Part shown: piece after piece, positions 4,610 through 32,930 of the stretch
Position numbering within the stretch: position 1 is the first letter of the stretch
How the letters are laid out: each line of letters begins with the position of its first letter
From: a candidate division WOR-3 bacterium
GTDB lineage: Bacteria > Hydrothermota > Hydrothermia > LBFQ01 > DSFT01
Direction: 5' to 3'
Length of the DNA: 35,377 nucleotides
NCBI GenBank assembly: GCA_039803045.1
Contig: JBDRXT010000001.1
Span: 1-35,377 of the forward strand
The notes under the pieces: model-generated
Seen by the model: the letters and a program-made list of their open reading frames with translations, nothing else
Databases searched by the model: none
Told to the model about the DNA's origin: nothing
Made by a program: the position numbers and the translations under genes

Positions 4610-4904
4610 AGATTTTCAGGAAATTATTAGAAAAACTTATTATGAAAGAGATAAGCAAAAAGGCATCAAGAGTGTTTTTATTTGGACTATTGAAGAAGTT
4701 GGTGAATTAGCAAAATCTTTGAATAGAAAAACTAAAGAGGATATTAAATTAGAAGTTTCGGATGTTATAGCATGGATTTTTAGTATTGCAAATTTGTTAG
4801 ATATTGATATTGAAGAAGCTTTAGAAAGATATTTTAATGGATGTCCAAAATGTAAAAGTATGCCTTGTGTTTGTAAAATGGAGGTGAATTTTGAAGGAAC
4901 TTAA
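4599..4904 (+). CDS. MazG-like nucleotide pyrophosphohydrolase domain protein with Cys-rich tail
   Basis: EEVGELAKS...EVSDVIAWIFSIANLLDIDIEEA is typical of the MazG/YpjD fold. CPKCKSMPCVC tail. Start at ATG 4599; 4590 is a TTG. Confidence 0.75.
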   Translation: MRIRDFQEIIRKTYYERDKQKGIKSVFIWTIEEVGELAKSLNRKTKEDIKLEVSDVIAWIFSIANLLDIDIEEALERYFNGCPKCKSMPCVCKMEVNFEGT

Positions 4905-5409
4905 CTATAGAGTGAATGAAAGTATAAGAGCAAGAGAAGTTCAAGTGATTGGACCTGATGGAAAAAGTTTGGGTGTTATGAGAACAGTAAAAGCGATTGA
5001 ACTTGCTAAGAGTATGGGATTTGATCTTGTTGAAGTTTCTCCTAATAGTAATCCACCTGTTGCAAAAATTATGGATTATGGTAAGTTTATATATGAACAA
5101 AAGAAAAAGCTAAAGGAAATAAAAAAACACCAAAAATCTATGGAAGTAAAAGAAATTCAATTATCACCTGTAATTGATAAGCATGATCTTGAAGTGAAAA
5201 TTAGAAAAGCAAGAGAGTTTTTAGAAGAAGGTCATAAAGTGAGGTTTAGATTAATTTTTAGAGGAAGGCAAATAGTTCATCCAGAAATTGCGAAAGATGT
5301 TTTAGAAAAAGTTATAAACGATTTATCTGAAATTTCAGATGTTGAACAAGCTCCAAAAGATGAAGGAAAATTTATTATCATGCTTTTAAGGCCAAAATCA
5401 AGACGATAG
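4891..5409 (+). CDS. infC: translation initiation factor IF-3
   Basis: INESIRAREVQVIGPDGKSLGVM N-domain and a conserved C-domain. TTG start preceded by GGAGGTG (4880-4886). An in-frame ATT also sits at 4888. Confidence 0.9.
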   Translation: MKELNYRVNESIRAREVQVIGPDGKSLGVMRTVKAIELAKSMGFDLVEVSPNSNPPVAKIMDYGKFIYEQKKKLKEIKKHQKSMEVKEIQLSPVIDKHDLEVKIRKAREFLEEGHKVRFRLIFRGRQIVHPEIAKDVLEKVINDLSEISDVEQAPKDEGKFIIMLLRPKSRR

Positions 5410-8242: not shown

Positions 8243-8254
8243 AAAATTTTAAAG
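8243..8254 (-). promoter_or_regulatory. promoter-like motif CTTTAAAATTTT, 4 nt before the fabH ATG (8238)
   Basis: Perfect 12-mer on the minus strand; 7 nt from TAAAAT to the ATG. Confidence 0.6.
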
Positions 8255-8264
8255 GGGGATTAAG

Positions 8265-8275
8265 CTTTAAAATTT
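8265..8275 (+). promoter_or_regulatory. promoter-like motif CTTTAAAATTT, 7 nt before the ALDH ATG (8283)
   Basis: 11-mer; 9 nt from TAAAAT to the ATG. No SD in the gap. Confidence 0.55.
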
Positions 8276-10975: not shown

Positions 10976-11655
10976 TGACAGAGCTTTGGGAGATTCTTTT
11001 TATATGGCTTGGTCTTGCACTTTTGTCAAGTTTAATTTCATTAAGGCTCGGTATATCTGGATAATTGTAGGGAACTTATTTAGCTGGTGCAGAGCTTGAA
11101 AGCAGTACTATAAAAACTTATTGGAAGAGTGCTATAATTAGTGGAGTATAAAACAATCAATTTTAGCAGGGACAGCGTTATCTTCTATCTCTATAGCTAT
11201 TGTTTACGCTTTGCTCATAGAAACTAACTTAAACGAAAAAAAAATTGGAAAATTACTTTTAGCTTCTTCTTTTATAAATGGACTTGGAACACTGCTTATT
11301 ACTTCCACCTTTTACAAGAGCATACAATTTTTATGTAAGAAATCATCACAGTGAACCAGAGGTTTCTAGTTATGCAGGAAGTGTTGCAGTATTGCCTGCA
11401 TATCTTATTGGTGTAATCTTATTTATTTCCTCAAAGCTGGTAGTCTGATTGATATTGCAATCGCGATTAAAAATCTTGGGTTTATAATTTTATTTTTTAT
11501 GATAAGGTTTTCTCTTAAATTGGTCGGTTTATATATTAACGGGTCTTACATTTGATACCATAGTTGCTCTCTATGGTTTAGAACATGGAATAATCGATAA
11601 GAATCAATATTCTATTTTAGAAGCAGTAATTTCTCTTCCCGAAGGAGGGAGATAA
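10975..11655 (+). pseudogene. decayed cation:proton antiporter (CPA2/Kef/NapA-like) gene remnant
   Basis: No ORF over 60 codons in 680 bp. Pieces in shifting frames read MTELWEILFIWLGLALLSSLISLRLGISG*L*GTYLAGAELESSTIKTYWKSAIISGV*, then AGTALSSISIAIVYALLIETNLNEKKIGKLLLASSFINGLGTLLI, then IDIAIAIKNLGFIILFFMIRFSLKLVG, then TIVALYGLEHGIIDKNQYSILEAVISL. The order and wording resemble CPA2 TM segments. TAATG overlaps remain at both ends (nuoF stop, usp start). Confidence 0.6.
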
Positions 11656-18721: not shown

Positions 18722-19816
18722 TTAGTAAATAAATTTACTAATAGCATAAGCCATCCAAGCTATTGACCATCTTATATATGGAATTTTAATTTTAAAAAAC
18801 TTATTTTCCTGAAAGTAAAAATAATGCTTTCTAATATCAAACATCCTATTTAATGCATTATCAAGAATAATCTTAGCAATATCTTTCTCTTCAAACTCAC
18901 AAAATAAAACGATAGAAGTGGCATAGGAGTGTATATCAAGTGGATATAATTTTTTGTGATAATACTTTGGCAGAAAATCTTTTGTAAATAAGTTTTTCTT
19001 ATAAAAGTTATATCCCTTTTCAATCGCTTCTAAAATTCTTTTGTCTTCCGTAGCTTTATATATCCATTTTAAAGCTAATAAATTGAAAGCTGTGTGAAAA
19101 TTATCAATATATTTAATATTGGGAGCATAAAACCAACTCCCATCAGTATTTTGAAACTTATATGCAAATAAACCACATTTAAGTGATTTTAATCTAAAGT
19201 TTTCATCTCCATTAATTAAGTAAATTCTTGCTAATACTGAACCACCTAACAAACTTGCGTTAAAAACTTTTAAATTGTCAATCGGAGTATATGAAAAAAC
19301 TAAAATTTCATCATCCTCGTATGTGTTTAAGTCATTTAGTATAAAATCTGCAGTAGAATGCGCTATTTTAAAGTCTTCACTATTTTTAAATTTCTCATAA
19401 GCATCTAAAAATCCATGAGCTATGAAAGAAGTATTTACAATTGTTGGCGTATATTCCTTTAAATAAAAAACTCTACTTTGCCAAGGAAAATTATAACCCC
19501 AGCAACATCCACTATATCCATTTGACTTTAATCTCATTAGCAATCTTTTAACAAAATAGTAATTATCTAAATCCTCAATCCTTGAAAATACAGAAAGAAA
19601 CAATCCCAAACCCTTAGGGTTATAATCCTTTTTTATAAGGATCAATTTTCTAAAATTAATAGGAGAATGCTTGATTAATTGTGTAAATAGAATTCTTAAG
19701 TATTTATGAAATCCAATTGCTCTTAAAATAGGACTATTTAAAGCATCGTAAGGATCATAACCTTTAAATTCTTCATTTTCAGCATATTTAATTAATGAAC
19801 GTAATATTCCTTCCAA
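18722..19816 (-). CDS. hypothetical protein, possibly an (alpha/alpha)6-toroid polysaccharide-associated enzyme
   Basis: 364 aa. GYDPYDALNSP and CCWGYNFPWQSR motifs recall uncharacterised proteins in polysaccharide loci. TTG start. The functional call is weak. Confidence 0.5.
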   Translation of the reverse strand: MEGILRSLIKYAENEEFKGYDPYDALNSPILRAIGFHKYLRILFTQLIKHSPINFRKLILIKKDYNPKGLGLFLSVFSRIEDLDNYYFVKRLLMRLKSNGYSGCCWGYNFPWQSRVFYLKEYTPTIVNTSFIAHGFLDAYEKFKNSEDFKIAHSTADFILNDLNTYEDDEILVFSYTPIDNLKVFNASLLGGSVLARIYLINGDENFRLKSLKCGLFAYKFQNTDGSWFYAPNIKYIDNFHTAFNLLALKWIYKATEDKRILEAIEKGYNFYKKNLFTKDFLPKYYHKKLYPLDIHSYATSIVLFCEFEEKDIAKIILDNALNRMFDIRKHYFYFQENKFFKIKIPYIRWSIAWMAYAISKFIY

Positions 19817-19822
19817 AAGTTG

Positions 19823-19834
19823 AAAATTTTATAC
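19823..19834 (-). promoter_or_regulatory. promoter-like motif variant GTATAAAATTTT, 6 nt before TTG 19816
   Basis: Minus-strand variant in the divergent spacer 19817-19867. Confidence 0.4.
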
Positions 19835-19852
19835 CATACATAAATGAAAATC

Positions 19853-19863
19853 CTTTAAAATTT
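19853..19863 (+). promoter_or_regulatory. promoter-like motif CTTTAAAATTT, 4 nt (CACT) before ATG 19868
   Basis: 11-mer; 6 nt from TAAAAT to the ATG. Confidence 0.6.
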
Positions 19864-19867
19864 CACT

Positions 19868-21169
19868 ATGAAAATTCTCATAAAAGCAGATTATATATTA
19901 ACGATGAATGAAAATGAAGATGTCATTTGCCATGGTTTTGTTATCATAGAAAATGATAAGATTTCAAAAATTGGCAAATTAGATCAATTAGATAATGAAA
20001 GTGTGGATTATATAATTGATGATAGACCAAATATACTACTTCCTGGATTTGTGAATACACATACTCATATTGCTATGGTTGGTTTTAGAGGGTTTGCTGA
20101 TGATAAGGATTTAATGGACTGGTTAAATAATTATATATGGCCTGCTGAAAATAGAGCTATTGATAGAGAATTTATTAAGCTTGCTACTGAAGTTGCAATT
20201 TCTGAAATGATTAGAACAGGAACTACTACATATAATGATATGTATTTCTTTCAAGAAATAACTGCGGAAATCTCAAGAGATATAGGTATTAGAGCTTTTC
20301 TTGGTGAGGGATTAATTGATTTTCCAACACCTTCTTTCAAAAATCCAGAAGATGGTATTAAAATAGCTAAAAGCTTTATAAAGAATTATTTGAATGATGA
20401 GTATATTTATCCTACACTTTGCTTACACTCTCCTTACTCTTGTTCAAAAGAATTAATTTTTAAAGGTTTTGAAATTGCCAAAGAATATAACGTCCCAATT
20501 CATATGCACGTTGCAGAAACAAAAAAAGAGGTTGAAATTATAAAAAGCAAATATAACCTTACTCCAGTAAGATTTTTAAATTCACTTAATGTTTTAGATC
20601 ATAAGTTCATATCAGCTCATAGTATTTATTTAGATGATGAAGAAATTGAGATTTTTAAGATTAAAAACGTAAGTGTTGCTCATAATCCACAAAGTAATAT
20701 GAAGCTTTCAAGTGGTATAGCTCCTATTATTAAGATGTTAAATAAGGGGGTTAATGTTGCAATAGCTACGGATGGAACAGCTTCTAATAATAATTTAGAT
20801 ATGATTGATGAAATGAGAAGTTGTGCTTTAATTCATAAAGTTTATATGATGGATCCTAAAGTTGCAAGTGCTAAGGATGTTTTAAAAATGGCAACGATAT
20901 ATGGAGCAAGGGCTTTAGGTTTAGATTATAAAATTGGAAGTATAGAAATTGGAAAGAAAGCAGACTTAATCACAATCTCTTTAAATAATCCCCACTTAAT
21001 GCCAATTTATGATCCTTATTCAGCTATTGTTTATAGTGCAAACGGTTTAGATGTTTCAACTGTTATAATAAATGGAAAAGTTTTAATGGAAAAGAAGGAA
21101 TTTAAAAATATTGATTTGGAAAAAATTAAATATAATGCTCAAAAACTCAAAGAAAAAGTATTAGGATAA
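19868..21169 (+). CDS. mtaD: amidohydrolase, 5-methylthioadenosine/S-adenosylhomocysteine deaminase-like
   Basis: 433 aa. LLPGFVNTHTHIAM metal-binding HxH, HMHVAET, and the SAHSIY...TDG pattern of MtaD/SsnA-type deaminases. Confidence 0.78.
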   Translation: MKILIKADYILTMNENEDVICHGFVIIENDKISKIGKLDQLDNESVDYIIDDRPNILLPGFVNTHTHIAMVGFRGFADDKDLMDWLNNYIWPAENRAIDREFIKLATEVAISEMIRTGTTTYNDMYFFQEITAEISRDIGIRAFLGEGLIDFPTPSFKNPEDGIKIAKSFIKNYLNDEYIYPTLCLHSPYSCSKELIFKGFEIAKEYNVPIHMHVAETKKEVEIIKSKYNLTPVRFLNSLNVLDHKFISAHSIYLDDEEIEIFKIKNVSVAHNPQSNMKLSSGIAPIIKMLNKGVNVAIATDGTASNNNLDMIDEMRSCALIHKVYMMDPKVASAKDVLKMATIYGARALGLDYKIGSIEIGKKADLITISLNNPHLMPIYDPYSAIVYSANGLDVSTVIINGKVLMEKKEFKNIDLEKIKYNAQKLKEKVLG

Positions 21170-21188
21170 AAAATTCAAATAAGTGAAG

Positions 21189-21200
21189 CTTTATAATTTT
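21189..21200 (+). promoter_or_regulatory. promoter-like motif CTTTATAATTTT (TATAAT version), 4 nt (CACT) before ATG 21205
   Basis: Same layout and same CACT spacer as at 19853. Canonical TATAAT hexamer. Confidence 0.6.
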
Positions 21201-21204
21201 CACT

Positions 21205-22329
21205 ATGACTGAAAAAACTTTAAATTATATTCAGCCATTTACTGATGAGCCTATAAGGTTTATATCAAGCGAAGGAGAGCCATTATTTGATTTTACACCA
21301 GAAGATATAGGGCTTACAAATGAAGACTTAAGAACATTATATTATTATATGAAATTAACAAGAGCTTTTGATAAAAAGGGAATGTTTTTAACTCGTTCTG
21401 GAAAATCTTTATTTTATGTAGAGGTTGCGGGACAGGAAGCCTCTACAGTTTCAAGTGGTTATGCTATTCCTGAAAACGACTGGATATTTCCAGCTCATAG
21501 AGAGCATGGTGTTTATCTTGTAAGAGGTTATCCGCTTGTTGAAATGTTTGCACAATTGATGGGAAGAATGGAAATTAATAAAGCAAGACAAATGCCTGTG
21601 CACTGGGGTATGAGAAAACTTAGAATTATAACAATATCAAGTCCTGTTGGAAATCAATTACCACAAGCAGTAGGTATAGGAATGGCTATAAATTATCTAA
21701 AGAAAGATGAAGCAATAATTGTTTATGTGGGTGATGGAGGTGTTTCTGAAGGTGATTTTCATAGTGCTCTTACTATGGCTGGTGTTTTTAAAACCCCTGT
21801 TGTATTTTTTGTACAAAATAACAATTGGGCCATTTCTGTTCCTATTACGAGACAAAATCCATCAAAAAATATTGCAATTAAAGCAATTGCGTATGGTATG
21901 GAAGGATATTACGTTGATGGAAATGACTTTTTAGCAGTTTATGCAGTTACTAAATTAGCATTTGAGAAAGCCCATAACAAAGAACCGGTTTTAATTGAAG
22001 CATTAACATATAGATATGGTTCACACTCAACTGCAGATCAAGCTGATAGATATAGAGATATTAAGGAACTTGAATATTGGCAAAAAACTTGGGATCCTAT
22101 AAAAAGGGCTAGATTATATTTAAGCAGGATTGGTATTTGGAATGAAAAATGGGAAAAAGAGTTAGATGAGCAAATAGAAGAGGAATTAAATAAAGCTATT
22201 GACGAAGCAGAAAAAAGGCCAATTCCTGGACCTGAAACAACGTTTGAAGATGTTTATGCTCAAATGCCCTGGCATATAAAAGAAGAAATGGAAGAGTTAT
22301 TAAAAGAATTAAGAGAAAAGGGCGTGTAG
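21205..22329 (+). CDS. thiamine-diphosphate-dependent 2-oxoacid dehydrogenase E1 component, alpha subunit
   Basis: 374 aa. GDGGVSEGDFHSALTMAG TPP-binding motif, NNNWAIS and YRYGSHSTADQADRYR. No E1-beta/E2 follows. The stop codon lies inside tRNA-Val. Confidence 0.85.
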   Translation: MTEKTLNYIQPFTDEPIRFISSEGEPLFDFTPEDIGLTNEDLRTLYYYMKLTRAFDKKGMFLTRSGKSLFYVEVAGQEASTVSSGYAIPENDWIFPAHREHGVYLVRGYPLVEMFAQLMGRMEINKARQMPVHWGMRKLRIITISSPVGNQLPQAVGIGMAINYLKKDEAIIVYVGDGGVSEGDFHSALTMAGVFKTPVVFFVQNNNWAISVPITRQNPSKNIAIKAIAYGMEGYYVDGNDFLAVYAVTKLAFEKAHNKEPVLIEALTYRYGSHSTADQADRYRDIKELEYWQKTWDPIKRARLYLSRIGIWNEKWEKELDEQIEEELNKAIDEAEKRPIPGPETTFEDVYAQMPWHIKEEMEELLKELREKGV

Positions 22330-22393
22330 CTCAGTTGGTGAGAGCGCCATCCTCACACGATGGAGGTCCCCCGTTCAAGTCGGGGCACGCCCA
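22320..22393 (+). tRNA. tRNA-Val (anticodon CAC)
   Basis: Hand-folded cloverleaf: acceptor GGGCGTG/CACGCCC, D stem GCTC/GAGC, anticodon stem CCATC/GATGG with loop CTCACAC, T arm CCCCG-TTCAAGT-CGGGG, discriminator A. No encoded CCA. Confidence 0.93.
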
Positions 22394-22395
22394 TT

Positions 22396-23298
22396 ATGAT
22401 AAATACAAAAGAAGCTTATGAAAGAATAAAAAATTATATAAGAAAAACACCTGTGATAAAATACAAAAGTTTTTATTTTAAACTTGAAAATTTACAAAAA
22501 TCTGGTTCTTTTAAGCCAAGAGGTGCTTATAATAAAATTTTAAAAAACATTAATATCAATGGAGTAGTTTGTGCATCGAGTGGAAATCATGCTCAAGCAG
22601 TTGCAAAAGCATGCTCTGACCTAAACATTAAAAATGTAAAGATTATAGTCCCCAAAAATACCCCTGAGGTTAAAATTAATAAAATTAGATATTATGGTTA
22701 CGAACCAATTTTTTATGGAGAACATTTAAATGAAAGCTTAAATTATGCCAAGGAGTTAGCAAGAAGTGAAAATTTATTATTTGTTCATCCGTATGATGAT
22801 TTAGATATTATTGAAGGTCAAAGCACAATTGGATTAGAAATTGAAAATTATGATTTTGAATATTTGTTTATTCCAATTGGTGGAGGAGGTCTTGCTAGTG
22901 GAATTTCAATTTACATTAAGCAAAAAAAACCAAAAGTTAAAATTTATGGATTAGTTTCTGAAAATGCCCCAAGCTTTTTTTATTCTTTTAAGAGTAATAA
23001 AATTGTTAAATTTGAGCCAAAAGAAACTATTGCAGATGGTATAAGATTAAAATATCCAAGCAGCTTAACGTTTAAAATATTAAAAGAAAGATTAGAGGAT
23101 GTAATATTAGTAAAAGAGGATGAAATTAAACAAGCTATAAAGTGGGCATATAATAATCTTGGATTAATCTTAGAAGGTGCGGGAGCGATAAGTATAGCAG
23201 TTTTTTTATTTGAAAAATTAGATATTTCAAGTGGAATGTTTATATTAAGTGGTGGAAATATTAATGAAAGTCTCTTAGATAGTATTTTGAGATTATGA
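22396..23298 (+). CDS. PLP-dependent threonine/serine dehydratase family protein
   Basis: SGSFKPRGAYNK PLP-Lys motif, SSGNHAQA and GGGGLASG. Start at ATG 22396 (MINTKEAYERI), 2 nt after the tRNA-Val 3' end. The longer ORF-track N-terminus is just the tRNA read through. Confidence 0.8.
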   Translation: MINTKEAYERIKNYIRKTPVIKYKSFYFKLENLQKSGSFKPRGAYNKILKNININGVVCASSGNHAQAVAKACSDLNIKNVKIIVPKNTPEVKINKIRYYGYEPIFYGEHLNESLNYAKELARSENLLFVHPYDDLDIIEGQSTIGLEIENYDFEYLFIPIGGGGLASGISIYIKQKKPKVKIYGLVSENAPSFFYSFKSNKIVKFEPKETIADGIRLKYPSSLTFKILKERLEDVILVKEDEIKQAIKWAYNNLGLILEGAGAISIAVFLFEKLDISSGMFILSGGNINESLLDSILRL

Positions 23299-25268
23299 AG
23301 ATAATTATTGTTGAGAGCCCTTCAAAAGCTAAAACAATTAGTAAGTTCTTGAAAGGTTATTTACTAAAAGCTACGCTTGGGCATATTGTAGACTTACCAG
23401 AAAAAGAAATTGGGGTTGATCTTAATGACTTTAAAATGACATTTTTACCTATTAAAGGTAAATCTAAAATAATACAAGAGTTAAGGGAATTAGTGAAAAA
23501 AGCAGAGATTGTCTATATTTCAACAGATCCTGATAGGGAAGGAGAAGCAATTGCTTATCATATAGTAGATAGAACAAAACCAAAAAATTATAAAAGAATT
23601 GAATTGCACGCTATAATTAAAGAGGAAGTAATAAAAGCTCTCAAAAATCCCAGAGATTTAGATTATAATAGAGTTTATTCCCAATTTTCAAGAAGAATTA
23701 TAGATAGGATTGTTGGATATTTCCTATCTCCATTAGCTAGTAAAACACTTGGGGGTAAACTGTCTGTTGGAAGAGTTCAAAGTCCAGCATTAAGATTAAT
23801 TGTTGAACGTGAAAGAGAAATAAGAAATTTTAAACCTGTAACATATTATCAAATTCAAGTTGTTTATAGAAAGGAAAATATAGAATTTATTGCAAAGTTT
23901 CCCCAAAACATATATGATAAACAAGAAGCAGAAAAAATAGTTGAAGAAATTAAGAAAAATAAGCACATAGTATATTCTATAAACCAGATCGAAGAAAAAG
24001 AGAGTCCTCCAGCTCCATATAGAACTGCTACACTTCAAGAGGATGCAAACAAAATTTTAAAAATTAGTCCAGAAGAAACTATGAAAATTGCTCAATTTCT
24101 ATATGAGAGTGGTTATATTACATATCATAGAACAGATAGTGTGAAAATAAACGAAAATATAATTTTTAAAATAAGAGAGTATATTAAGCAAAATTTTGGG
24201 AAAGACTATGTTGCTAATAAAATTCGCACTTTTAAATCAAAGAAATTTGCTCAAGAAGCACATGAAGCAATTAGACCTTCAATTATAAGTCAAGCTAGAG
24301 AACCGAAAAAACTAAATTTACCCCAAAAAGCTCTTATGATTTATGAACTTATTTGGAATAGAACTATATCAAGTCAAATGGAAAGTTCTATTTGGAAAAA
24401 ATTAAATGTAATAATAAAAGTTGGAAATTATGAACTTTTAGCTCAAGGTAAATATCTTGTTTTTGAAGGTTGGAGAAAACTATATGATTTGCCCGAAATG
24501 GAGATAATTCCTAATTTAAAAGAAAATGAAATTTTAGAATACATTAAAGTTGAATTATTAGAAAAACAAACACAACCTCCAAGTAGATATACTGAAGGTT
24601 CTTTAATAAAAATGCTTGAAAAACTTTCTATTGGAAGACCATCAACTTATGCTCAAATAATCAAAACATTAAAACAGAGAAAGTACGTTAAAGTTAAAAA
24701 TGGAATTCTTTATCCTAGTGAACTTGGTGAAAAGTTAATTGATTGGTTAAGTAGAGAATATAGTTGGGTAATTGATTATGGTTTTACAGCAAAGATGGAA
24801 GAAAAACTTGATTTAGTAGAGGAGGGGAAGTTAGATTGGAAAATTGTTGCTCAAGAGATTTATGAAAAATTAAAAGATGTTGAAATAAAAATTAGGGAAA
24901 ATAAACCAAGTGATAAACAATTAGAACTTGCACAAAAAATTTCTAATGAGCTAAATATTGAATTAGATGAAGAAGTTAAAAGCGATAAAAGAAAATTATC
25001 AAAATGGCTTGATAAGAATAAGCCACCTACCCAAAAGCAAATAGAAATTGCCCAAAAATTAGCAGAAAGCTTAAATTTAAAATTAGATGAAGAAATTTTA
25101 AAAAGTCAAAAAAAATTATCTAAGTGGATTGAAAAACATTCAAAACCTTCTCAAAAACAAATAGAACTTCTCAATAAACTAAAAGAAAAAGGATATGAAA
25201 TCCCACAAGAAGCTTATTTAAGTTTGAAAAAAGCTAAAGAAGTTATAAGGAAAATATTAAAAAAATGA
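23295..25268 (+). CDS. topA: DNA topoisomerase I (type IA)
   Basis: TOPRIM N-terminus (IIVESPSKAKTI, DPDREGEAIA) and active-site GYITYHRTDS. C-terminus has three helical repeats and no Cys zinc fingers. Confidence 0.92.
   Translation: MKIIIVESPSKAKTISKFLKGYLLKATLGHIVDLPEKEIGVDLNDFKMTFLPIKGKSKIIQELRELVKKAEIVYISTDPDREGEAIAYHIVDRTKPKNYKRIELHAIIKEEVIKALKNPRDLDYNRVYSQFSRRIIDRIVGYFLSPLASKTLGGKLSVGRVQSPALRLIVEREREIRNFKPVTYYQIQVVYRKENIEFIAKFPQNIYDKQEAEKIVEEIKKNKHIVYSINQIEEKESPPAPYRTATLQEDANKILKISPEETMKIAQFLYESGYITYHRTDSVKINENIIFKIREYIKQNFGKDYVANKIRTFKSKKFAQEAHEAIRPSIISQAREPKKLNLPQKALMIYELIWNRTISSQMESSIWKKLNVIIKVGNYELLAQGKYLVFEGWRKLYDLPEMEIIPNLKENEILEYIKVELLEKQTQPPSRYTEGSLIKMLEKLSIGRPSTYAQIIKTLKQRKYVKVKNGILYPSELGEKLIDWLSREYSWVIDYGFTAKMEEKLDLVEEGKLDWKIVAQEIYEKLKDVEIKIRENKPSDKQLELAQKISNELNIELDEEVKSDKRKLSKWLDKNKPPTQKQIEIAQKLAESLNLKLDEEILKSQKKLSKWIEKHSKPSQKQIELLNKLKEKGYEIPQEAYLSLKKAKEVIRKILKK
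24903..25265 (+). repeat. three tandem ~40-codon repeats inside topA (topoisomerase C-terminal repeat-like)
   Basis: KPSDKQLELAQKISNELNIELDEEVKSDKRKLSKWLDKN / KPPTQKQIEIAQKLAESLNLKLDEEILKSQKKLSKWIEKHS / KPSQKQIELLNKLKEKGYEIPQEAYLSLKKAKEVI. Repeat starts at 24903, 25020 and 25143. Confidence 0.8.
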
Positions 25269-26317
25269 AAATATTAAGAGGTTCAATTTTAGCTTTTAGA
25301 ATTTACGATGTTGCAAGTGAAATAGACTTAAACAAGATTCAAATATCAAGAACAGAAATTTCGAAAAAATTTGGTAAAAGATTGATTTATCTTAGAAATC
25401 CACCTGCGGTCTTGTTCTTAGAAGAAATTTTACTTAAGAAATTAAATACTCAAGTATTTGCAAAGTTTTATGAGTTTGGAGCAATAAGTTTAATTCTTAA
25501 GATTATATTGGAAGATATTGAAGTTGAAAAATTATACGAGATTTTTAGGGAGGTTTTAGAAAGTGAAGAAATTGATGAAATTTGCAAGTTTTACTTAAAC
25601 AAGTTATTTGAAAAATACAAAATTTACTTTAAAAAACCATCTATATATGGAGATTATGAAGATTACACAATTGTTTATATTCAGGATTTTGAAAGAAAGT
25701 TAAAAAATTACGAAATTCTTGAGGAGATTGATATTGCAAGATTATTACTTGGTGAAAAATATAATCTAAGTGAGCAAACAAAAACAAATCTCCTGAGAAA
25801 TAAGTTTTCATATTCTGATGAAGATTTAGTAGTTTTAAGTTGGGATAGTGGATTTGTTTATGAACCCGATGGGATTATGGATGTTCCAGATTTAATCGAA
25901 TTTGCTAATGCACAGCTTTTGGAGTTAAGATATTATGACAGTTATCTTGATGGTGTTCTTGAAGAAACTTATAGTACAATAGAAAGCTTTAAGAGTTCAG
26001 TATTTGAATATAGAAAATACCAAAGAGTTTTAAAAAGATTACTATTTCTATATAATGAAATAACTGAAGCAAAAGAAATGATTTTGAATAGCTTAAAAAT
26101 TGTAGAAGATTCTTATTTTGCAAAGATTTATTCAAAAATGCTTGAGATTTTAGGAGCTTATAACTGGCAAAGAAGTATTGATAGTAAAGAAAGAACACTA
26201 TTTGAGATATACAACTTCTTAAGCACTCAAGTCTCAAATAGGAGATTAGAATTTCTTGAAATTGTAATAATTTTAGTAATAATTTTTGAAGCTTTGTTAT
26301 TTATAGTTATTAAGTGA
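25265..26317 (+). CDS. RMD1/DUF155-like protein with a C-terminal transmembrane helix
   Basis: 350 aa. Overall layout and the C-terminal RRLEFLEIVIILVIIFEAL helix resemble DUF155 (RMD1/YagE). ATGA overlap with topA. Confidence 0.45.
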   Translation: MKILRGSILAFRIYDVASEIDLNKIQISRTEISKKFGKRLIYLRNPPAVLFLEEILLKKLNTQVFAKFYEFGAISLILKIILEDIEVEKLYEIFREVLESEEIDEICKFYLNKLFEKYKIYFKKPSIYGDYEDYTIVYIQDFERKLKNYEILEEIDIARLLLGEKYNLSEQTKTNLLRNKFSYSDEDLVVLSWDSGFVYEPDGIMDVPDLIEFANAQLLELRYYDSYLDGVLEETYSTIESFKSSVFEYRKYQRVLKRLLFLYNEITEAKEMILNSLKIVEDSYFAKIYSKMLEILGAYNWQRSIDSKERTLFEIYNFLSTQVSNRRLEFLEIVIILVIIFEALLFIVIK

Positions 26318-27372
26318 GTTTTAATATAGCTTTAAAATTATTCAATATGTTATGGTTATTTTCAATTTTGCAAATTTCGGATACATCTGGGAATATCAAA
26401 ATAAAGGATCAGGATGTTGTTATATCCGGGAATGTAAATGGAGATGTTTCAATTGAGAATGGTTCACTTGTTATACTTGAAGAGGGAGAAGTAAAAGGCT
26501 CAGTTTCTGTATTTGGCGATAGTTGTAATATATTTGGTAAGATAAGAGGCAATCTTTCGGCAATCTCCAAAAGCATTGTTATAAAAGGTTCTATTTATGG
26601 TGATGTTTCTCTTATTGGACTTTTGGTGAAAATAAAAGAAAATGGTTACATAAATGGAAATGTTTCAATTGTTGCTGCGAACTTTGAAAATAAAGGAGAA
26701 ATTGAAGGTGAAAAGAGCATTATTTCTATAAATTCTCTTCCTTTTGTTTTACAAAACAACAAAATAAAGTTTGAGAGAAAATTAGACAAAAGAATAAGCA
26801 TATTAATTTTACTGTTATCAATTTTTGTTATAACATTCTTAATTTTTCTCTTTTCAAAAAGAAAGATAGATGAATTTTTTGAGAGATTTCGCCAAAATCC
26901 TCTAAAAACAATAATTACTGGATTAGCTATTCTTTTGATAATTATACCAATATTACCAATTGTCTTATTTCTTGTATTTGGGTTTGTTCTTTTGGCTTTT
27001 ATTCTAGCTCTTATTGTTGGTTCTATTGCTCTAATTATTACGATAATCGGAATTATAATTCTTCCTTTTTATCTTATAGCAATTTTGGTTGTTCTTCTAA
27101 TTATTATTTTTCTTACACTTCTTGCAATTCCTATTTATGTAATTATTGCTCTATTATTAATTGCAATTGGCCTTACTTATGGAATTGTTATAATTGGAAA
27201 ACTAATTGCAAAGAATGATTATTTAGCTTACGCTTTTGGCTTTTTTATCCTTGCAGTCTTAACTACTTTAAGCTATATTTTTCCATATATTAGTCCAATA
27301 TACTTTGTATTTTTAACACTTCTCGTAATAATGGGTCTTGGTTTAATTAAGAATAAAAAATTTAGTCTTTAA
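26314..27372 (+). CDS. bactofilin-like beta-helix domain fused to a polytopic I/L-rich membrane domain
   Basis: N-terminal repeats (ISGNVNGDVSIENGS, VKGSVSVFGDS, IFGKIRGNLSA, IKGSIYGDVSL, INGNVSIVAAN) followed by ~6 very hydrophobic helices. GTG start in a GTGA overlap. Alternative ATG at 26347 has a promoter-like motif upstream. Confidence 0.6.
   Translation: MSFNIALKLFNMLWLFSILQISDTSGNIKIKDQDVVISGNVNGDVSIENGSLVILEEGEVKGSVSVFGDSCNIFGKIRGNLSAISKSIVIKGSIYGDVSLIGLLVKIKENGYINGNVSIVAANFENKGEIEGEKSIISINSLPFVLQNNKIKFERKLDKRISILILLLSIFVITFLIFLFSKRKIDEFFERFRQNPLKTIITGLAILLIIIPILPIVLFLVFGFVLLAFILALIVGSIALIITIIGIIILPFYLIAILVVLLIIIFLTLLAIPIYVIIALLLIAIGLTYGIVIIGKLIAKNDYLAYAFGFFILAVLTTLSYIFPYISPIYFVFLTLLVIMGLGLIKNKKFSL
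26330..26340 (+). promoter_or_regulatory. one-mismatch motif CTTTAAAATTA, 6 nt before the internal ATG 26347
   Basis: Lies inside the 5' end of ORF 26314. Could mark an alternative leaderless start for the bactofilin-membrane gene. Confidence 0.3.
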
Positions 27373-27378
27373 AATTTT
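27367..27378 (+). promoter_or_regulatory. promoter-like motif CTTTAAAATTTT, 6 nt before the sppA ATG (27385)
   Basis: Perfect 12-mer filling the 12-nt intergenic gap and overlapping the upstream stop codon. Confidence 0.55.
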
Positions 27379-27384
27379 CAAAAT

Positions 27385-29475
27385 ATGCTTGAAATTTTAA
27401 TAAATTTTTATTTTTCAAGAAGTGTATCTGCTGTTGGAGGATCACAAAGTATATTTTCAAATCCTGCTGGGCTTTCAAGTTATTATTCTTCATTTCTACT
27501 TTCATATAATTTAAAAAATAATTCTTGGATTTACGGTTTGAACTTAGGGGGAATTGGTATATTTAAAGATAACTTTAGCACAATATTTGCTATATCCACA
27601 TCAATTAGGGGATTTTCCTTAGGGGTTTCCTATAATGACAATTTGAAAGTTTTGAATCCAGGTATACTCTATAGACCATTTAGATTCTTGTCACTTGGGT
27701 ATTATAAGGATATTTACTCAGTAACATTAAGACCATTTTCAAAAAGTATTTTAGAAATTTCGTTTGATGCATATTATAAAGATACATTCAAACTAAATTT
27801 GATAAGTGCTGGACTTAATTTAAAAAGTGTGCTAATTTATACAAATTACAACTTGATTAATAGAAATTATATGATTGGCATAAATCTTGCTTTTGAAAAT
27901 GTTTTATTAGGAGCAAGAAGTGATAGCAATTTCATTTTTGAAATAACACTTGATAAGCTACCAGGCCAAATAAAGAGAAAATATTACTCAGAAATTAATG
28001 TTTTAGAATACAGTGAAGATAAAGTAGATAAACTTCCTGGTTTTGAATTTATTAAAATTGGAAAATATTCTGAAAACTTTTATGAATTTATTTCAAACTT
28101 AGAGAAAAGTCTTAAAAGTGAAGATGTAAAGGGTATTATTTTGAAATTATCAAATGCAAGATTAAGTTTAAGTCAGATTGAAGAAATTAGAAATTTGATA
28201 AAGAATTCAAATAAGGAAATTATTTGCTATGCTGACGAATATAATTACAAGAACTATTACTTAGCAACTGCTTGTAAAAAAATTGTTATAAATCCGAATG
28301 GTTCAATATATTTATCAGGTCTTTATATGAAGAGAGAGTATTATAAAGAACTTCTTGATAGTTTAGGAATTGTTGTTCAATTTGAGCACTTTGAAGAGTA
28401 TAAGAGTGCTATAGAACCATTTACAAGAACTAATGCAAGTCAATACGATAGAGAGCAAAGAGAGAGAATATTGAAAGTAATGTATGAAAAAATAAAGCAA
28501 GATATTTTAAGTTCAAGAAAAATTGAAAATTTAGATAGTTTGTTTAATTTTGGAATATGGATAAATCCAGAAGATGCTAAAAAACTAAATCTTATAGATG
28601 ATATCCAATACGAGAATGAATTGCTTAAAAAGTATAGAATTTCAAAATTAAAAAACTATGCTTCATATGAGTGGGAGGATCAATTTAAGCAAAAGATAGC
28701 ACTTTTATTTGTAGAAGGTCCCATTATTGACAAGGACTTATATAATGTATTTGACAATAGTACAACTATAGGTAAAAATTTTGCAAGATTACTTGAAAAG
28801 CTAGAAAAAGACAACTCAGTAAAAGCAGTAATCATTAGGATTAATAGTCCAGGGGGATCTGCATTTATGAGTGATATAATATCAAATGAAATAAAGAAGT
28901 TATCAAAGAAAAAGCTTGTAATTATTTCTATGGCTAATGTTGCTGCAAGTGGTGGATATTATATAAGTGCATATGCAAATAAAATTTTTGCAAATAACTT
29001 AACAATAACTGGTTCAATTGGTATTCTTGGAGGATATTTAGCAACAGATGGATTTTTTAAAAAGAAGCTTTATATTAATTATGATAGATTTAAAATATTT
29101 GAACATTCGGATATCTTTAGTGGGAGAGTTTTAGACAGTTTTGAAATATCTAAATTGAGGGAGGAACTAAAATACGGCTATGAGAAGTTTTTAAAAGTAG
29201 TTTCAGAAGGAAGAAATATTGAAGTTGATTCTTTGAGAAAAATAGCAAAAGGAAGAGTTTGGATTGGTTCAGATGCTAAGAATATAGGTCTTGTTGATAG
29301 TATTGGAGGAGTATTAGATGCTGTAAATTATGCTAAATCGAAATTTAAGAAAGCAGATATTGTAATTTATACGAGAAAATTTGATTACGATTATAACTTT
29401 TTACCAATTGGAATATTAATGAGAATGTTCAAGGATAGGATTTTATATTATGATAACATAGACGAAATTGAATGA
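27385..29475 (+). CDS. sppA: signal peptide peptidase SppA (67K type, two S49 domains) with an extra ~200-aa N-terminal beta-rich module
   Basis: VKAVIIRINSPGGSAF and ASGGYYISAYANKIFANNLTITGSIGI (S49 Ser/Lys region), plus an upstream degenerate S49 copy. N-terminal module carries SIFSNPAGL. Confidence 0.85.
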   Translation: MLEILINFYFSRSVSAVGGSQSIFSNPAGLSSYYSSFLLSYNLKNNSWIYGLNLGGIGIFKDNFSTIFAISTSIRGFSLGVSYNDNLKVLNPGILYRPFRFLSLGYYKDIYSVTLRPFSKSILEISFDAYYKDTFKLNLISAGLNLKSVLIYTNYNLINRNYMIGINLAFENVLLGARSDSNFIFEITLDKLPGQIKRKYYSEINVLEYSEDKVDKLPGFEFIKIGKYSENFYEFISNLEKSLKSEDVKGIILKLSNARLSLSQIEEIRNLIKNSNKEIICYADEYNYKNYYLATACKKIVINPNGSIYLSGLYMKREYYKELLDSLGIVVQFEHFEEYKSAIEPFTRTNASQYDREQRERILKVMYEKIKQDILSSRKIENLDSLFNFGIWINPEDAKKLNLIDDIQYENELLKKYRISKLKNYASYEWEDQFKQKIALLFVEGPIIDKDLYNVFDNSTTIGKNFARLLEKLEKDNSVKAVIIRINSPGGSAFMSDIISNEIKKLSKKKLVIISMANVAASGGYYISAYANKIFANNLTITGSIGILGGYLATDGFFKKKLYINYDRFKIFEHSDIFSGRVLDSFEISKLREELKYGYEKFLKVVSEGRNIEVDSLRKIAKGRVWIGSDAKNIGLVDSIGGVLDAVNYAKSKFKKADIVIYTRKFDYDYNFLPIGILMRMFKDRILYYDNIDEIE

Positions 29476-30068: not shown

Positions 30069-30069
30069 A

Positions 30070-30080
30070 CTTTAAAATTT
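30070..30080 (+). promoter_or_regulatory. orphan motif copy CTTTAAAATTT right after the thiE stop, with no credible downstream plus-strand gene for 280 nt
   Basis: 11-mer followed by TTTGAACAG. It would drive a transcript antisense to the decayed zinc-ribbon gene. Confidence 0.35.
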
Positions 30081-30097
30081 TTTGAACAGATTAAATA

Positions 30098-30309
30098 TTA
30101 ATCAAAAATGTCAAATATATCTGTCCACTTCTTTTTCTTCTTCTTGTAATATTCATTATCATAATATCCAAATCTTTTATAATCTTCTTCCCAATCCCTT
30201 TCAACTTCTCTTATTCTTTGAACTATTTTTTCAAACTCACCTCTATCAAGCCATATACCATTACATTAATTTCATTCATGAATACATTACACACTGGGCA
30301 TCTTTTCAT
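30098..30309 (-). pseudogene. disrupted small zinc-ribbon gene (zf-TFIIB/PF13453-like)
   Basis: Minus strand reads MKRCPVCNVFMNEIN..., stopping after 28 codons. A second frame continues CNGIWLDRGEFEKIVQRIREVERDWEEDYKRFGYYDNEYYKKKKKKWTDIFDIFD*. The family pattern CPxC...CxxCxGxWLDxGE is broken near 30264-30270, losing one Cys and shifting the frame. Confidence 0.55.
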
Positions 30310-30315
30310 ATCCTG

Positions 30316-30327
30316 AAAATTTTAAAG
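30316..30327 (-). promoter_or_regulatory. promoter-like motif CTTTAAAATTTT, 6 nt before the ATG (30309) of the zinc-ribbon pseudogene
   Basis: Perfect 12-mer on the minus strand. Confidence 0.5.
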
Positions 30328-30340
30328 TAAAGAGCAAAAC

Positions 30341-30351
30341 CTTTAAAATTT
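30341..30351 (+). promoter_or_regulatory. promoter-like motif CTTTAAAATTT, 5 nt before ATG 30357 (LVIVD protein)
   Basis: 11-mer; 7 nt from TAAAAT to the ATG. Confidence 0.6.
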
Positions 30352-30356
30352 AAACT

Positions 30357-31334: not shown

Positions 31335-32247
31335 ATTTTTGAAAAACTTTAAAGAATATGAAAACAAAAACATTTTTATACTATTGGGTCCAGAAGATTA
31401 TCCATTAAAATCAATTTTGGAAAAGTTTGTAAATTATGAGAAAAAAATTTTTTTTGGAGATGAAACAACAATAGATGAAATTTTAAGTTTTCTAAAATCA
31501 ACACAAATTTTTGATTCAAAGATTAAGCTTGTAATCTTAAGGGATTTTGAAAAGATGAAAAATTGGAAATTGCTCTTGAAAGAAAATATTAACAAAATTA
31601 TTTTATATTCAAGCTTAGATATATTTGAAAATAATCCAAAAAAACTTGAGAATGAAGCTAAAGAATTTATAAGAAAGAATATTTCAAATCCCCAAAACTA
31701 CGTAATCGTATTGATGAGATATTTAAATTTAGATGAAAAGAGAAAATGGCTTAGGCAAAAACTTAATAAGTTAAAATTAAATTTGAATGCTGAACAATTT
31801 GAAATTTTGTTTCAATCACTTCCTCCAGACTTAAGGGGTTCTAGTAATGAGATTGAAAAAATTTATTTAAGTGGATTAGAGAATTTTGAATTTATCATTA
31901 CAAGAAATGAAAATTCAGATATTTATGAATTTTTAAATTACTTGCAAAGTGGCAATTTAATTTCATCAATTAAACTCATTGAAAACACAAAGAAATATAT
32001 TGAAACAAACTCATACATTTTAAGAGTATTGTTAAACTTGCTATATTCTAATCTCAATTTAGATAAATATATCAAACCATCGTTTATGGCAAAGAAGTTT
32101 AATAAAATTTCTCAAAATTTTGAAAATTCAGATATTTTGGACTTAATTTTTCTATCGCTTAAAACTGACAAGGCTTATAAAACATTTCATAAACAAAATT
32201 TAGCTATACTGAAGTTATTATATTATATATTTCAGAAGGTTCATTAA
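31318..32247 (+). CDS. possible DNA polymerase III delta subunit (HolA-like)
   Basis: 309 aa. N-terminal IFILLGPEDYPL...FFGDE...IFDSKIKLVIL resembles the HolA N-domain pattern. Weak call. Confidence 0.45.
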   Translation: MLTHIEFLKNFKEYENKNIFILLGPEDYPLKSILEKFVNYEKKIFFGDETTIDEILSFLKSTQIFDSKIKLVILRDFEKMKNWKLLLKENINKIILYSSLDIFENNPKKLENEAKEFIRKNISNPQNYVIVLMRYLNLDEKRKWLRQKLNKLKLNLNAEQFEILFQSLPPDLRGSSNEIEKIYLSGLENFEFIITRNENSDIYEFLNYLQSGNLISSIKLIENTKKYIETNSYILRVLLNLLYSNLNLDKYIKPSFMAKKFNKISQNFENSDILDLIFLSLKTDKAYKTFHKQNLAILKLLYYIFQKVH

Positions 32248-32827
32248 CTGTAAAGTCAGCATTACAATTTTCACCAAATCCCCAATTTACGAATATACTT
32301 TTAACATTAGAAATTCTTGCACTTTCAACATCATAACAACTATCACCAATAATATAAACTTTCTCCCTATTTATCTTATATTTTTCAATTAAATAATCAA
32401 TCGGCTTTTTATCCGGCTTTTTAAATCCATCGTCAATCGTTATAATTTCATCAAAAAGATTATAAATATCAAATCTTCTTAAAATTTCAATTATGAAGAA
32501 CTTAGACTTATTGCTATAAATAGCAATTTTAACATTTAACTCCTCTTTAATTTTTCTTAAAGTTTCAATTACGTTTGTATAAGCTACAAGTCCCTCAAAC
32601 ATATAATTTCTATAAATATCATTAAACTCATCAATTAATTTGGCTTGGAAATCTTCCTTAAAAATTTCCCTTAAAGTGGCTTCGATACCTCCTCCAACAG
32701 ATTTTTTTACTTGCTCCCTTGTTAGAAGTTCTTTATTTTGTTTTTTTAATAGTTCATTTATTGCTAAGGTAAGACCAAGAGAAGTATCGAATAATGTTCC
32801 ATCAAAATCAAATATTAATAGTTTCAT
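32204..32827 (-). CDS. HAD-superfamily hydrolase (phosphoglycolate phosphatase/PpaX-like)
   Basis: MKLLIFDFDGTLFDT (motif I), SNK (motif II region) and IGDSCYDVESA (motif III). Start at ATG 32827, 1 nt after the tRNA-Leu 3' end. Confidence 0.8.
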   Translation of the reverse strand: MKLLIFDFDGTLFDTSLGLTLAINELLKKQNKELLTREQVKKSVGGGIEATLREIFKEDFQAKLIDEFNDIYRNYMFEGLVAYTNVIETLRKIKEELNVKIAIYSNKSKFFIIEILRRFDIYNLFDEIITIDDGFKKPDKKPIDYLIEKYKINREKVYIIGDSCYDVESARISNVKSIFVNWGFGENCNADFTVNEPSEIYNIITSV

Positions 32828-32828
32828 A

Positions 32829-32912
32829 TGCGGGAGGTGGGACTTGAACCCACACCCTTCTTCAGGACCAGATCCTAAATCTGGCGCGTCTGCCAAGTTC
32901 CGCCACTCCCGC
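32829..32912 (-). tRNA. tRNA-Leu (anticodon TAG)
   Basis: Hand-folded: acceptor GCGGGAG/CTCCCGC, anticodon stem CCAGA/TCTGG with loop TTTAGGA, long variable arm, T arm GTGGG-TTCAAGT-CCCAC, discriminator A. No encoded CCA. Confidence 0.93.
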
Positions 32913-32918
32913 AAGCCT

Positions 32919-32930
32919 AAAATTTTAAAG
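32919..32930 (-). promoter_or_regulatory. promoter-like motif CTTTAAAATTTT, 6 nt before tRNA-Leu nucleotide 1 (32912)
   Basis: Perfect 12-mer on the minus strand, directly after the M32 gene stop. Same spacing as at protein-gene start codons. Confidence 0.6.

Follow-up and report, generated by a model that had tools for sequence, protein, structure and literature searches.

Conserved abutment of a tRNA-Val gene with two protein-coding genes suggests tRNA-punctuated transcription in a candidate division WOR-3 lineage

Introduction

Can the excision of a transfer RNA (tRNA) give a bacterial gene its translation start? The question is raised by a locus on a complete 35,377-bp contig from the metagenome-assembled genome of a hot-spring bacterium labelled candidate division WOR-3 (Hydrothermia-like); this whole stretch of DNA was analysed and is called the window here. 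In it, a gene for tRNA-Val(CAC) lies between a coding sequence (CDS) for a 2-oxoacid dehydrogenase E1-alpha-like protein (E1-alpha), whose stop codon falls inside the tRNA, and the CDS of a threonine/serine dehydratase that begins just behind it (Table 1). The window has a G+C content of ~28% and its genes are densely packed, with frequent 4-nucleotide (nt) overlaps. The explanation that we favour, with moderate confidence, is a tRNA-punctuated transcription unit, in which RNase Z-type cleavage at the tRNA 3' end would yield a near-leaderless dehydratase mRNA and RNase P would leave the E1-alpha mRNA without a stop codon.

Table 1 Positions of the features discussed, given in window coordinates (aa, amino acids; ORF, open reading frame; SD, Shine-Dalgarno sequence)
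Feature	Position	Strand	Evidence or remark
Promoter motif CTTTATAATTT (extended -10)	21189..21199	+	Ends 5 nt before the E1-alpha ATG; 1 mismatch to CTTTAAAATTT
2-oxoacid dehydrogenase E1-alpha-like CDS, 374 aa	21205..22329	+	Pfam E1_dh 1.1e-83; dN/dS
tRNA-Val(CAC), 74 nt	22320..22393	+	ARAGORN; Rfam tRNA; compensatory changes across 5 species
E1-alpha TAG stop, the conserved tRNA core U8-A9-G10	22327..22329	+	In frame in all 5 species
2-nt spacer UU from discriminator to start codon; predicted leader if cut 3' of the discriminator	22394..22395	+	Sequence
Threonine/serine dehydratase (PALP) CDS, 300 aa, without SD	22396..23298	+	Pfam PALP 5.8e-69 from residue 12
topA	23295-25268	+	4-nt overlap with preceding gene
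350-aa ORF	25265-26317	+	4-nt overlap with preceding gene
Bactofilin-domain ORF	26314-27372	+	4-nt overlap with preceding gene
HAD-family phosphatase CDS, without SD	32204..32827	-	ATG 32827-32825, one U (32828) after the tRNA-Leu discriminator
tRNA-Leu(UAG), discriminator A32829, no encoded CCA	32829..32912	-	Rfam tRNA 56.3 bits
Exact promoter motif CTTTAAAATTT	32920..32930	-	9 nt from the end of TAAAAT to tRNA-Leu nt 1

Results

A functional tRNA-Val gene that contains the E1-alpha stop codon

tRNA genes were called with ARAGORN and the Rfam covariance model RF00005, and protein domains with Pfam and NCBIfam. Both tRNA methods bear out the original prediction, made from the sequence of this DNA, that a tRNA-Val at 22320-22393 is wedged between two CDSs. 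Its cloverleaf is canonical and all four stems are perfect (acceptor GGGCGUG/CACGCCC, D GCUC/GAGC, anticodon CCAUC/GAUGG, T CCCCG/CGGGG); the discriminator is A22393 and CCA is not encoded. A sensitive Rfam search (300 nt, laxer filters) scored it at 66.9 bits (E=1e-14, gathering score 29) over model positions 1-71 of 71. Double-sided compensatory changes are found among five species at acceptor pairs 4:69 (C-G/U-A) and 6:67 (U-A/C-G) and at one T-stem pair (C-G/U-A). Because its stems are kept by compensatory substitutions in relatives, the tRNA is, judging from these changes, a functional gene under selection and not a relic.

A whole-window Rfam scan in gathering mode found tRNA-Leu only; that it overlooked tRNA-Val(CAC) is an artefact of the speed filter and not the sign of a weak tRNA. 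Given this oversight of a canonical tRNA, negative whole-window Rfam results are to be read with caution. Compared with the Rfam alignment and a 7-bp acceptor stem, ARAGORN ends were 1 nt too long on one or both sides for tRNA-Leu, tRNA-Pro and one tRNA-Val (window 32828-32913 (-); L004 317-390 (-); L020 9925-9999; labels beginning with L denote loci of related genomes), an error that matters where spacers are 0-2 nt.

The first ten nt of the tRNA are also the last ten of E1-alpha, which ends ...AGA GAA AAG GGC GUG UAG, so that the stop codon stands at tRNA nt 8-10, as originally described. In all five species the UAG is kept in frame despite indels of 3 and 6 nt in the E1-alpha tail just before the tRNA, and the tail residues change passively with the tRNA stem pairs (REKGV, KEKGA, LNEGA, EIKGA). 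The ratio of nonsynonymous to synonymous substitution rates (dN/dS) of E1-alpha is 0.065-0.082 against three species. The protein scores 371 bits with the NCBIfam equivalog PDH_E1_alph_x (TIGR03181), under the cutoff of 411, and its match to Pfam E1_dh is strong; a look-up for an identical product gave no hit. The TIGR03181 profile stops at residue 364 of 374, and the last three, tRNA-encoded residues are therefore outside the conserved domain.

In the window the last sense codon of E1-alpha (22324-22326) is GUG, a codon that tRNA-Val(CAC) reads and that its own acceptor stem encodes; the other species have GCG (Ala) at this place, owing to the change in acceptor pair 6:67. None of the loci examined (the window and its equivalents in L003, L004 and L010) has an E1-beta gene adjoining E1-alpha. 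The E1-alpha-like gene is linked to the dehydratase gene in every species, and the dehydratase product 2-oxobutyrate would be a plausible 2-oxoacid substrate.

The geometry also agrees with the early remark that an RNase P cut at G22320 would strip E1-alpha of its stop codon. The reading frame would then end ...AGA GAA AA, and added A residues would complete AAA (Lys) and no stop. Stop completion by polyadenylation was accordingly rejected: the cleaved ends ...GAA AA or ...AAU GA cannot give a stop codon in the window, L001, L003 or L004 alike.

The dehydratase start and the conservation of the junction

The dehydratase had been predicted to start, with a complete N-terminus, at ATG 22396, two nt after the discriminator. 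The N-termini of 24 homologues (~45% to 85% identity) all fall within 1-3 residues of this position, and the NCBI annotation is a 300-aa product that starts there (P0001). Two further annotated proteins (P0003 and P0004) carry an extra N-terminus, MEVPRSSRGAP(I/T)M, which is translated tRNA and independently records the same junction. A start at ATG 22360 inside the tRNA, suggested by mechanical ORF calling, was discarded as a gene-caller artefact. The protein has the PALP domain of fold type II pyridoxal phosphate (PLP) enzymes and scores under the NCBIfam equivalog cutoffs; its PLP-lysine motif GSFKPRGA is present, residues F51, K52, R54, G55 and A56 do not vary among the aligned homologues, and its dN/dS is ~0.10.

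The arrangement is not a one-off: the order E1-alpha, tRNA-Val(CAC), dehydratase, with the stop codon at tRNA nt 8-10, is kept in five species-level lineages (the window and four others), and similar junctions recur at three other tRNAs (see below). The discriminator is followed by UU-AUG in the window, in the L001/L009-19 group and in L003, by CU-AUG in the L020-29 group, and directly by UUG, with no spacer, in L004-6. Synonymous divergence is near-saturated (dS 0.7-1.7), both flanking genes are under purifying selection (dN/dS 0.065-0.11), and beyond the triad the window, L003 and L004 have different neighbouring genes. In L019 (5696-5795) E1-alpha and the dehydratase seem to be 313 nt apart, but the stretch between them is a run of N, a scaffold gap with duplicated flanks, and no biological insertion.

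tRNA genes abut start codons elsewhere in the lineage

A survey of tRNA/CDS spacing had been proposed with the original prediction. In ~200 kb of distinct sequence from the window's lineage, five tRNAs have a gene downstream on the same strand, and four of them adjoin its start with 0-2 nt in between (up to 5 in one species). The second case in the window involves its only other tRNA, tRNA-Leu(UAG), and a HAD-family phosphatase. The latter begins MKLLIFDFDGT, which includes the catalytic DxDGT motif, and is matched from residue 1 by NCBIfam models for phosphoglycolate phosphatase; NCBI annotates the same 207-aa product (P0121). This junction reads A-U-AUG in the window, A-UAAAU-AUG (a 5-nt spacer) in L030, and U-CUG, with no canonical start, in L031; tRNA-encoded N-terminal extensions point to A-UU-AUG for P0124 and A-UUG for P0127. 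In L004 the helicase gene starts directly behind tRNA-Pro(CGG) (A-UUG) and has no in-frame Met over the next 105 codons. The fourth pair, tRNA-Val(GAC) and an MGDG synthase gene, reads A-UU-UUG in L031, L035, L037 and L038, and eight further protein clusters carry the corresponding tRNA-encoded extension MREVGGS.PP.PIL.

SD, promoter and encoded CCA are absent from all four junctions (tRNA-Val(CAC), Leu, Pro and Val(GAC)), and at every one the nucleotide after the discriminator is U, or one C and then U. The start codon is AUG for both window genes, UUG for the dehydratase and helicase of L004 and for all Val(GAC)-MGDG pairs, and possibly CUG for the HAD gene of L031. The fifth tRNA, tRNA-Arg(CCG), has the one long spacer of the AT-rich clade, 26 nt to an acetyl-CoA synthetase gene, and this spacer holds a full promoter motif of the leaderless type; tRNA-Gln(UUG) has no same-strand downstream gene. 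The upstream overlap also has a second instance, since the ORF before tRNA-Arg lacks a stop of its own and runs seven codons into the tRNA.

Several observations accompany these junctions. The HAD gene of L031 and L032 (9987-10003; genomes GCA_025060695 and GCA_026416795) lacks an in-frame ATG, GTG or TTG in its N-terminal region, and a CTG stands at the homologous start position, 1 nt past the tRNA-Leu discriminator; the annotated HAD protein P0130 begins at an ATT four codons on, with one residue left before the catalytic Asp. Gene callers repeatedly extend genes into the tRNA (MEVPRSSRG..., MREVGGSNPP...), and in one genome an ATT start was chosen. At L010 560-633 (-), where tRNA-Arg(CCG) and the acetyl-CoA synthetase gene are present, the upstream ORF takes its stop from a TAG within the D arm of the tRNA (...YKKSARSSIG*); in L013 (561-760 (-)), of the same species, both are absent, the ORF ends ...YKK-TAA, and a TPR gene follows behind a leaderless promoter. 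A 1.6-kb JGI contig that seemed a candidate for a transcript ending at the processing site was set aside as ordinary DNA, as it includes the tRNA and its promoter.

Could the ribosome find its signal inside the tRNA? A GGAGG in the variable loop and T stem of tRNA-Val(CAC) (22362-22366) lies 29 nt upstream of ATG 22396, a distance that would shrink to ~12 nt if the 17-nt T-arm hairpin were looped out, and it might thus act on the precursor as the SD of a split ribosome-binding site. GGAGG SDs are used elsewhere in the organism, and the T-stem 5' strand of tRNA-Val(GAC) in L035 is GGAGG as well. We nevertheless regard this explanation as very improbable. Purine runs are generic to tRNAs, where they are paired or stacked when folded; tRNA-Leu(UAG) and tRNA-Pro(CGG) have no GGAGG at a comparable place, the acceptor 3' strand of tRNA-Leu being CCUCCC, which is anti-SD-like; and the four tRNA families share neither such an element nor its distance. 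With a cut after the discriminator the predicted leaders are 2 nt for the dehydratase and 1 nt for the HAD gene, and no GGAGG lies within 25 nt outside the tRNA stems.

A leaderless-type promoter motif in the window

How first genes are expressed in this organism is suggested by a promoter motif. A generic sigma-70 scan of 19500-25500 gave 29 promoter-like sites where 31.0+-5.4 were expected, which is chance level in AT-rich DNA, and a generic terminator scan gave one terminator-like site where 2.2 were expected, also chance level; these scans were therefore replaced by the lineage's own motif. This motif, CTTTAAAATTT(T), occurs in 14 exact copies in the window, and in 36 copies at up to one mismatch compared with 15.9+-4.0 in shuffled sequences. 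It ends 3-9 nt ahead of the start of at least 13 first genes besides E1-alpha (examples of CTTTAAAATTT are 8244-8254(-), 8265-8275(+), 12083, 16746(-), 18711(-), 19853, 27367, 30341 and 34444(-)), some of which appear to begin with UUG, while genes further inside operons show a GGAGG or a 4-nt overlap. A -10-like TAAAAT 6-10 nt before the ATG implies leaders of 0-3 nt, and on this basis leaderless or 0-3-nt-leader transcripts would be the norm for first genes of the window organism. The enrichment and placement of the motif thus bear out the leaderless theme of the original prediction, and the promoter it had placed at 21189 is the one-mismatch copy before E1-alpha, whose transcript is accordingly predicted to be leaderless or very short-leadered. 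The motif also precedes E1-alpha in L003 and is present in relatives with 48-52% G+C (L007, L033).

The same motif precedes tRNA genes. It lies directly upstream of tRNA-Leu, tRNA-Val(GAC) and tRNA-Gln, and 22 nt upstream of tRNA-Pro. The TAAAAT 9-10 nt before nt 1 of tRNA-Leu is conserved (window, L030, L031, L033), from which a 5' leader of ~2-4 nt for RNase P is predicted, so that the tRNAs would themselves be nearly leaderless.

At the tRNA-Val(CAC)/dehydratase junction, by comparison, terminator-like sites and the lineage promoter motif are absent, as is any GGAGG close enough to the ATG; sequence and motif scans here agree with the original prediction, which had reported no promoter, SD or encoded CCA. 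The adjacency would mean nothing mechanistically if the dehydratase had a separate promoter or another start codon. AT-rich DNA is rich in sigma-70-like matches, as the 29 sites show, a weak motif copy (CTTGAAAATTT) lies at 22483 within the CDS, and an in-frame GTG is present at codon 20. Yet the generic scan is at chance and has no + strand match ending near 22396, and the 20 nt that precede the ATG consist of GC-rich tRNA sequence and contain no TAnnnT element. A start at codon 20 was rejected because it would drop residues conserved in the homologues, which all start at the 22396 position, including A19 (conserved in at least 90% of the sequences); the L004 helicase, for its part, has no alternative start for 105 codons. 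Taken together, this alternative is extremely improbable.

Relatives suggest how the junctions may have arisen. In a clade with 53% identity and 52% G+C the dehydratase has neither the tRNA nor E1-alpha upstream and is preceded by CCCTTTAAAATTTCCC-ATG instead. In a relative with 48% G+C the tRNA-Leu-HAD synteny is kept with a 19-nt spacer, CTCTAAACTTTCTCC-ATG, that holds a degenerate copy of the motif. In these GC-richer relatives the motif thus stands where the window has its tRNA junctions. The simplest history would be that promoter-bearing spacers collapsed in the AT-rich clade. Such a collapse would be possible if the tRNA 3' processing end were the functional equivalent of a leaderless transcription start.

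Alternatively, the packing may reflect compaction and nothing else. The tRNA would then have been wedged in by deletion bias, and the downstream gene would be translated independently of an SD from the unprocessed or 5'-processed precursor, by 70S scanning, by re-initiation after the E1-alpha stop or by direct entry beside the tRNA; excision would compete with downstream expression. The packing is indeed extreme, and many 4-nt overlaps lack an SD (topA at 23295; 25265, 26314 and 29472), so termination-reinitiation clearly works; the E1-alpha stop is just 67 nt upstream of the dehydratase ATG, and UUG or CUG starts and a 5-nt spacer match the classical leaderless rules poorly. Three facts make us consider this explanation unlikely. 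First, tRNA-Leu, tRNA-Val(GAC) and tRNA-Pro have the promoter motif upstream and no upstream ORF, so that no terminating ribosome could couple into the gene downstream of them. Second, in the precursor the start codon adjoins the very stable acceptor stem and, with it, a structure of -33.7 kcal/mol by RNA folding; the first 45 nt after the tRNA-Val cut are unstructured (0.0 kcal/mol), and the processed 5' coding regions fold at 0.0 and -2.7 kcal/mol over 30 nt. Third, the spacers do not form a continuum and fall into classes, 0-2 nt (once 5) versus a promoter-sized 19-26 nt.

A proposed processing pathway

The sequences show the geometry, which codons start and stop the flanking genes, junctions that lack SD, promoter and CCA, the conservation and recurrence of these junctions, and the leaderless-type motif; co-transcription, both cleavages with their enzymes, and translation of the processed RNA are what we infer. 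Transcription would start from the promoter at ~21189, at or a few nt from the E1-alpha ATG. The transcript (~21189 to ~27372) would span E1-alpha, tRNA-Val(CAC), the dehydratase, topA and two further genes. Motif and terminator scans found neither a promoter motif nor a terminator on the + strand from 21205 to 27367; the next exact + strand motif is at 27367-27377, ahead of a gene at 27385. The dehydratase, topA, the 350-aa ORF and the bactofilin-domain ORF probably form one operon with the upstream genes.

Within this transcript the tRNA would fold, RNase P would cut before G22320, and an RNase Z-type endonuclease, which is expected because the tRNA gene lacks CCA, would cut after A22393, directly 3' of the discriminator. 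A missing CCA and a U behind the discriminator are both compatible with an RNase Z substrate. The trailer carries a 5' phosphate after RNase Z cleavage, and in E. coli leaderless translation reportedly needs a 5' phosphate, a 5' hydroxyl being insufficient (Giliberti et al. 2012). RNase Z cuts directly after the discriminator of CCA-less precursors, and C residues right there inhibit it (PMC7479834). The downstream product would be a 5'-monophosphate mRNA beginning UU-AUG, read like the 0-3-nt-leader mRNAs of the organism.

The upstream product would be an E1-alpha mRNA minus its last three codons and stop. Since this mRNA would lose its stop on processing, E1-alpha would have to be made before processing or freed by ribosome rescue. 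In the first route, translation would be completed on unprocessed RNA, with the ribosome melting the acceptor and D stems; in the second, a rescue system would release the protein. Tagging by transfer-messenger RNA (tmRNA) would destroy E1-alpha, and an ArfB-type factor would release the protein three residues short. Among the annotated window ORFs there is no SmpB or ArfB, and Rfam finds no tmRNA or RNase P RNA in the window. We speculate that processing inactivates the upstream message as it activates the downstream one, and that it could set the E1-alpha:dehydratase ratio.

A number of points weigh against this pathway. Genes for RNase Z, the RNase P protein and a CCA-adding enzyme were not found in the sequence searched, which comprised all annotated window ORFs and the loci of relatives. 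(A metallo-beta-lactamase protein of L003 was considered as an RNase Z candidate and rejected, as it annotates as the hydrolase PRK00685.) UUG is the start at several junctions and perhaps CUG at one, and one spacer is 5 nt long. In C. crescentus leaderless initiation falls by about half with every nt added at the 5' end, and starts other than AUG work poorly (PMC8459731); in E. coli a single nt before the AUG already inhibits it, according to a remark in the same paper. The pathway implies wasteful non-stop E1-alpha mRNAs. A 5'-monophosphate end usually lowers the stability of a bacterial mRNA. Short spacers are also expected in a compact genome, and the pattern could be partly deletion bias and not selection for a processed 5' end. 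On the other side, the lineage's own promoters predict 0-3-nt leaders and some of its first genes seem to start with UUG; its ribosomes may be more permissive of short leaders and non-AUG codons.

Other observations in the window and its relatives

In the window the amidohydrolase gene and E1-alpha are 35 nt apart. In the closest relative (L010 3895-8787) ~5 kb lie between the two genes that are absent from window 21170-21204; this insert holds a Por-secretion-tail protein and restriction-modification fragments (N6_Mtase, Eco57I and TaqI_C pieces).

The gene for initiation factor 3 (infC, 4891-5409) apparently has a TTG start behind a GGAGG SD. In E. coli this factor discriminates against leaderless and non-AUG initiation, which may be of interest in a lineage that seemingly relies on both. 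Two intergenic regions stand out. The first, of 288 nt (30069-30356), has three exact promoter motifs (30070 (+), 30317 (-), 30341 (+)), no Rfam match, and as its sole ORF a low-complexity 82-aa TTG ORF; it may hold a small divergent transcript. The second, 679 nt long (10976-11654), separates nuoF from the gene of a universal stress protein; none of its ORFs exceeds 56 aa, Rfam gives nothing at E<=0.1, and it may represent a gene in decay or an RNA of unknown type.

Discussion

The proposed pathway combines elements that are all known: co-transcription of tRNA and mRNA, processing by RNase P and RNase Z, leaderless translation, and punctuation as in mitochondria. In the full-text literature searched (subscription journals lay outside its scope) we found no bacterial precedent for their combination, only mitochondrial work, general leaderless work and a long untranslated region (UTR) in Thermococcus kodakarensis; it describes no bacteria whose leaderless genes systematically have tRNA 3' ends in place of transcription start sites. 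We suggest, quite tentatively, that the AT-rich WOR-3/Hydrothermia lineage independently reached a mitochondria-like mode of expression, in which tRNA excision routinely sets translatable 5' ends (including UUG and CUG), stop codons are borrowed from tRNAs, and processing switches the upstream gene off and the downstream gene on at once.

If this is true, processed 5'-monophosphate ends would be regular translation start signals in a bacterium, and the lineage's ribosomes would have relaxed demands on 5'-terminal start codons. The kinetics of tRNA maturation would be tied to the expression ratio of neighbouring genes. The lineage would also be a natural system in which to test how strictly an AUG must be 5'-terminal and a leader short, and a bacterial model, as an evolutionary intermediate, for how mitochondrial punctuation could evolve from a leaderless-translating ancestor.

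Co-transcripts of tRNA and mRNA are familiar in bacteria, an example being thrU-tyrU-glyT-thrT-tufB of E. coli. In archaea, a tRNA-Lys lies inside the 159-nt 5' UTR of TK0306 of T. kodakarensis (PMC4247193). As in the locus described here, a promoter is shared and endonucleases must separate the tRNA from the mRNA. Those transcripts, however, keep tens to ~100 nt with a ribosome-binding site, whereas 0-2 nt would be left here, so the processed end itself would have to serve as the translation start signal. RNase Z cleavage at a tRNA 3' end also frees a functional downstream RNA in the dicistronic tRNA-small nucleolar RNA units of plants and Nanoarchaeum, as these are cited in PMC4247193; there, the product is a small non-coding RNA and not a translatable mRNA.

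Leaderless mRNAs are well represented in bacteria, among them 47-60% of the mRNAs of Deinococcus deserti (PMC4007540), mycobacteria and C. crescentus (PMC8459731; reviewed in PMC9031893). They share with the genes described here a start at or near the 5' end, no SD, a -10 box at a fixed short distance and an unstructured 5' coding region. They differ in that their 5' end is a primary triphosphate, while the post-tRNA genes are predicted to carry a processed monophosphate, and in that AUG dominates the known sets, while UUG is frequent at the tRNA junctions. A leaderless mRNA made by cleavage has been proposed for MazF of E. coli (Vesper et al. 2011), a proposal both summarised and questioned in PMC9031893. 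In that summary, too, an endonuclease cuts just upstream of the start codon; MazF is, however, a stress-induced, ACA-specific toxin, whereas constitutive tRNA maturation would do the cutting here.

The closest parallel is mitochondrial. The tRNA punctuation model is said to go back to Ojala, Montoya and Attardi (1981) and to animal mitochondrial DNA. That the locus resembles it was part of the original prediction, and this part stands as far as the geometry goes: in five species the tRNA abuts or overlaps CDSs on both sides. Here as in mitochondria (for descriptions see PMC8601606 and PMC12242768), tRNA genes abut or overlap flanking same-strand CDSs (by a 10-nt overlap and a 2-nt gap at our locus) and CCA is not encoded; RNase P and RNase Z would set the mRNA ends as they excise the tRNA, cleavage being a prediction here; the mRNAs start at or a few nt from the start codon with no SD, and non-AUG starts occur; and an upstream ORF can lose its complete stop codon. 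The parallel fails for stop completion, since the missing E1-alpha stop cannot be restored by polyadenylation. The WOR-3 organism is, moreover, a free-living thermophilic bacterium, uncultured and with many promoters, about one per operon, against two to three per genome in mitochondria; only some mRNAs of its lineage are flanked by tRNAs, and SD-led initiation is used beside the mode of expression proposed here.

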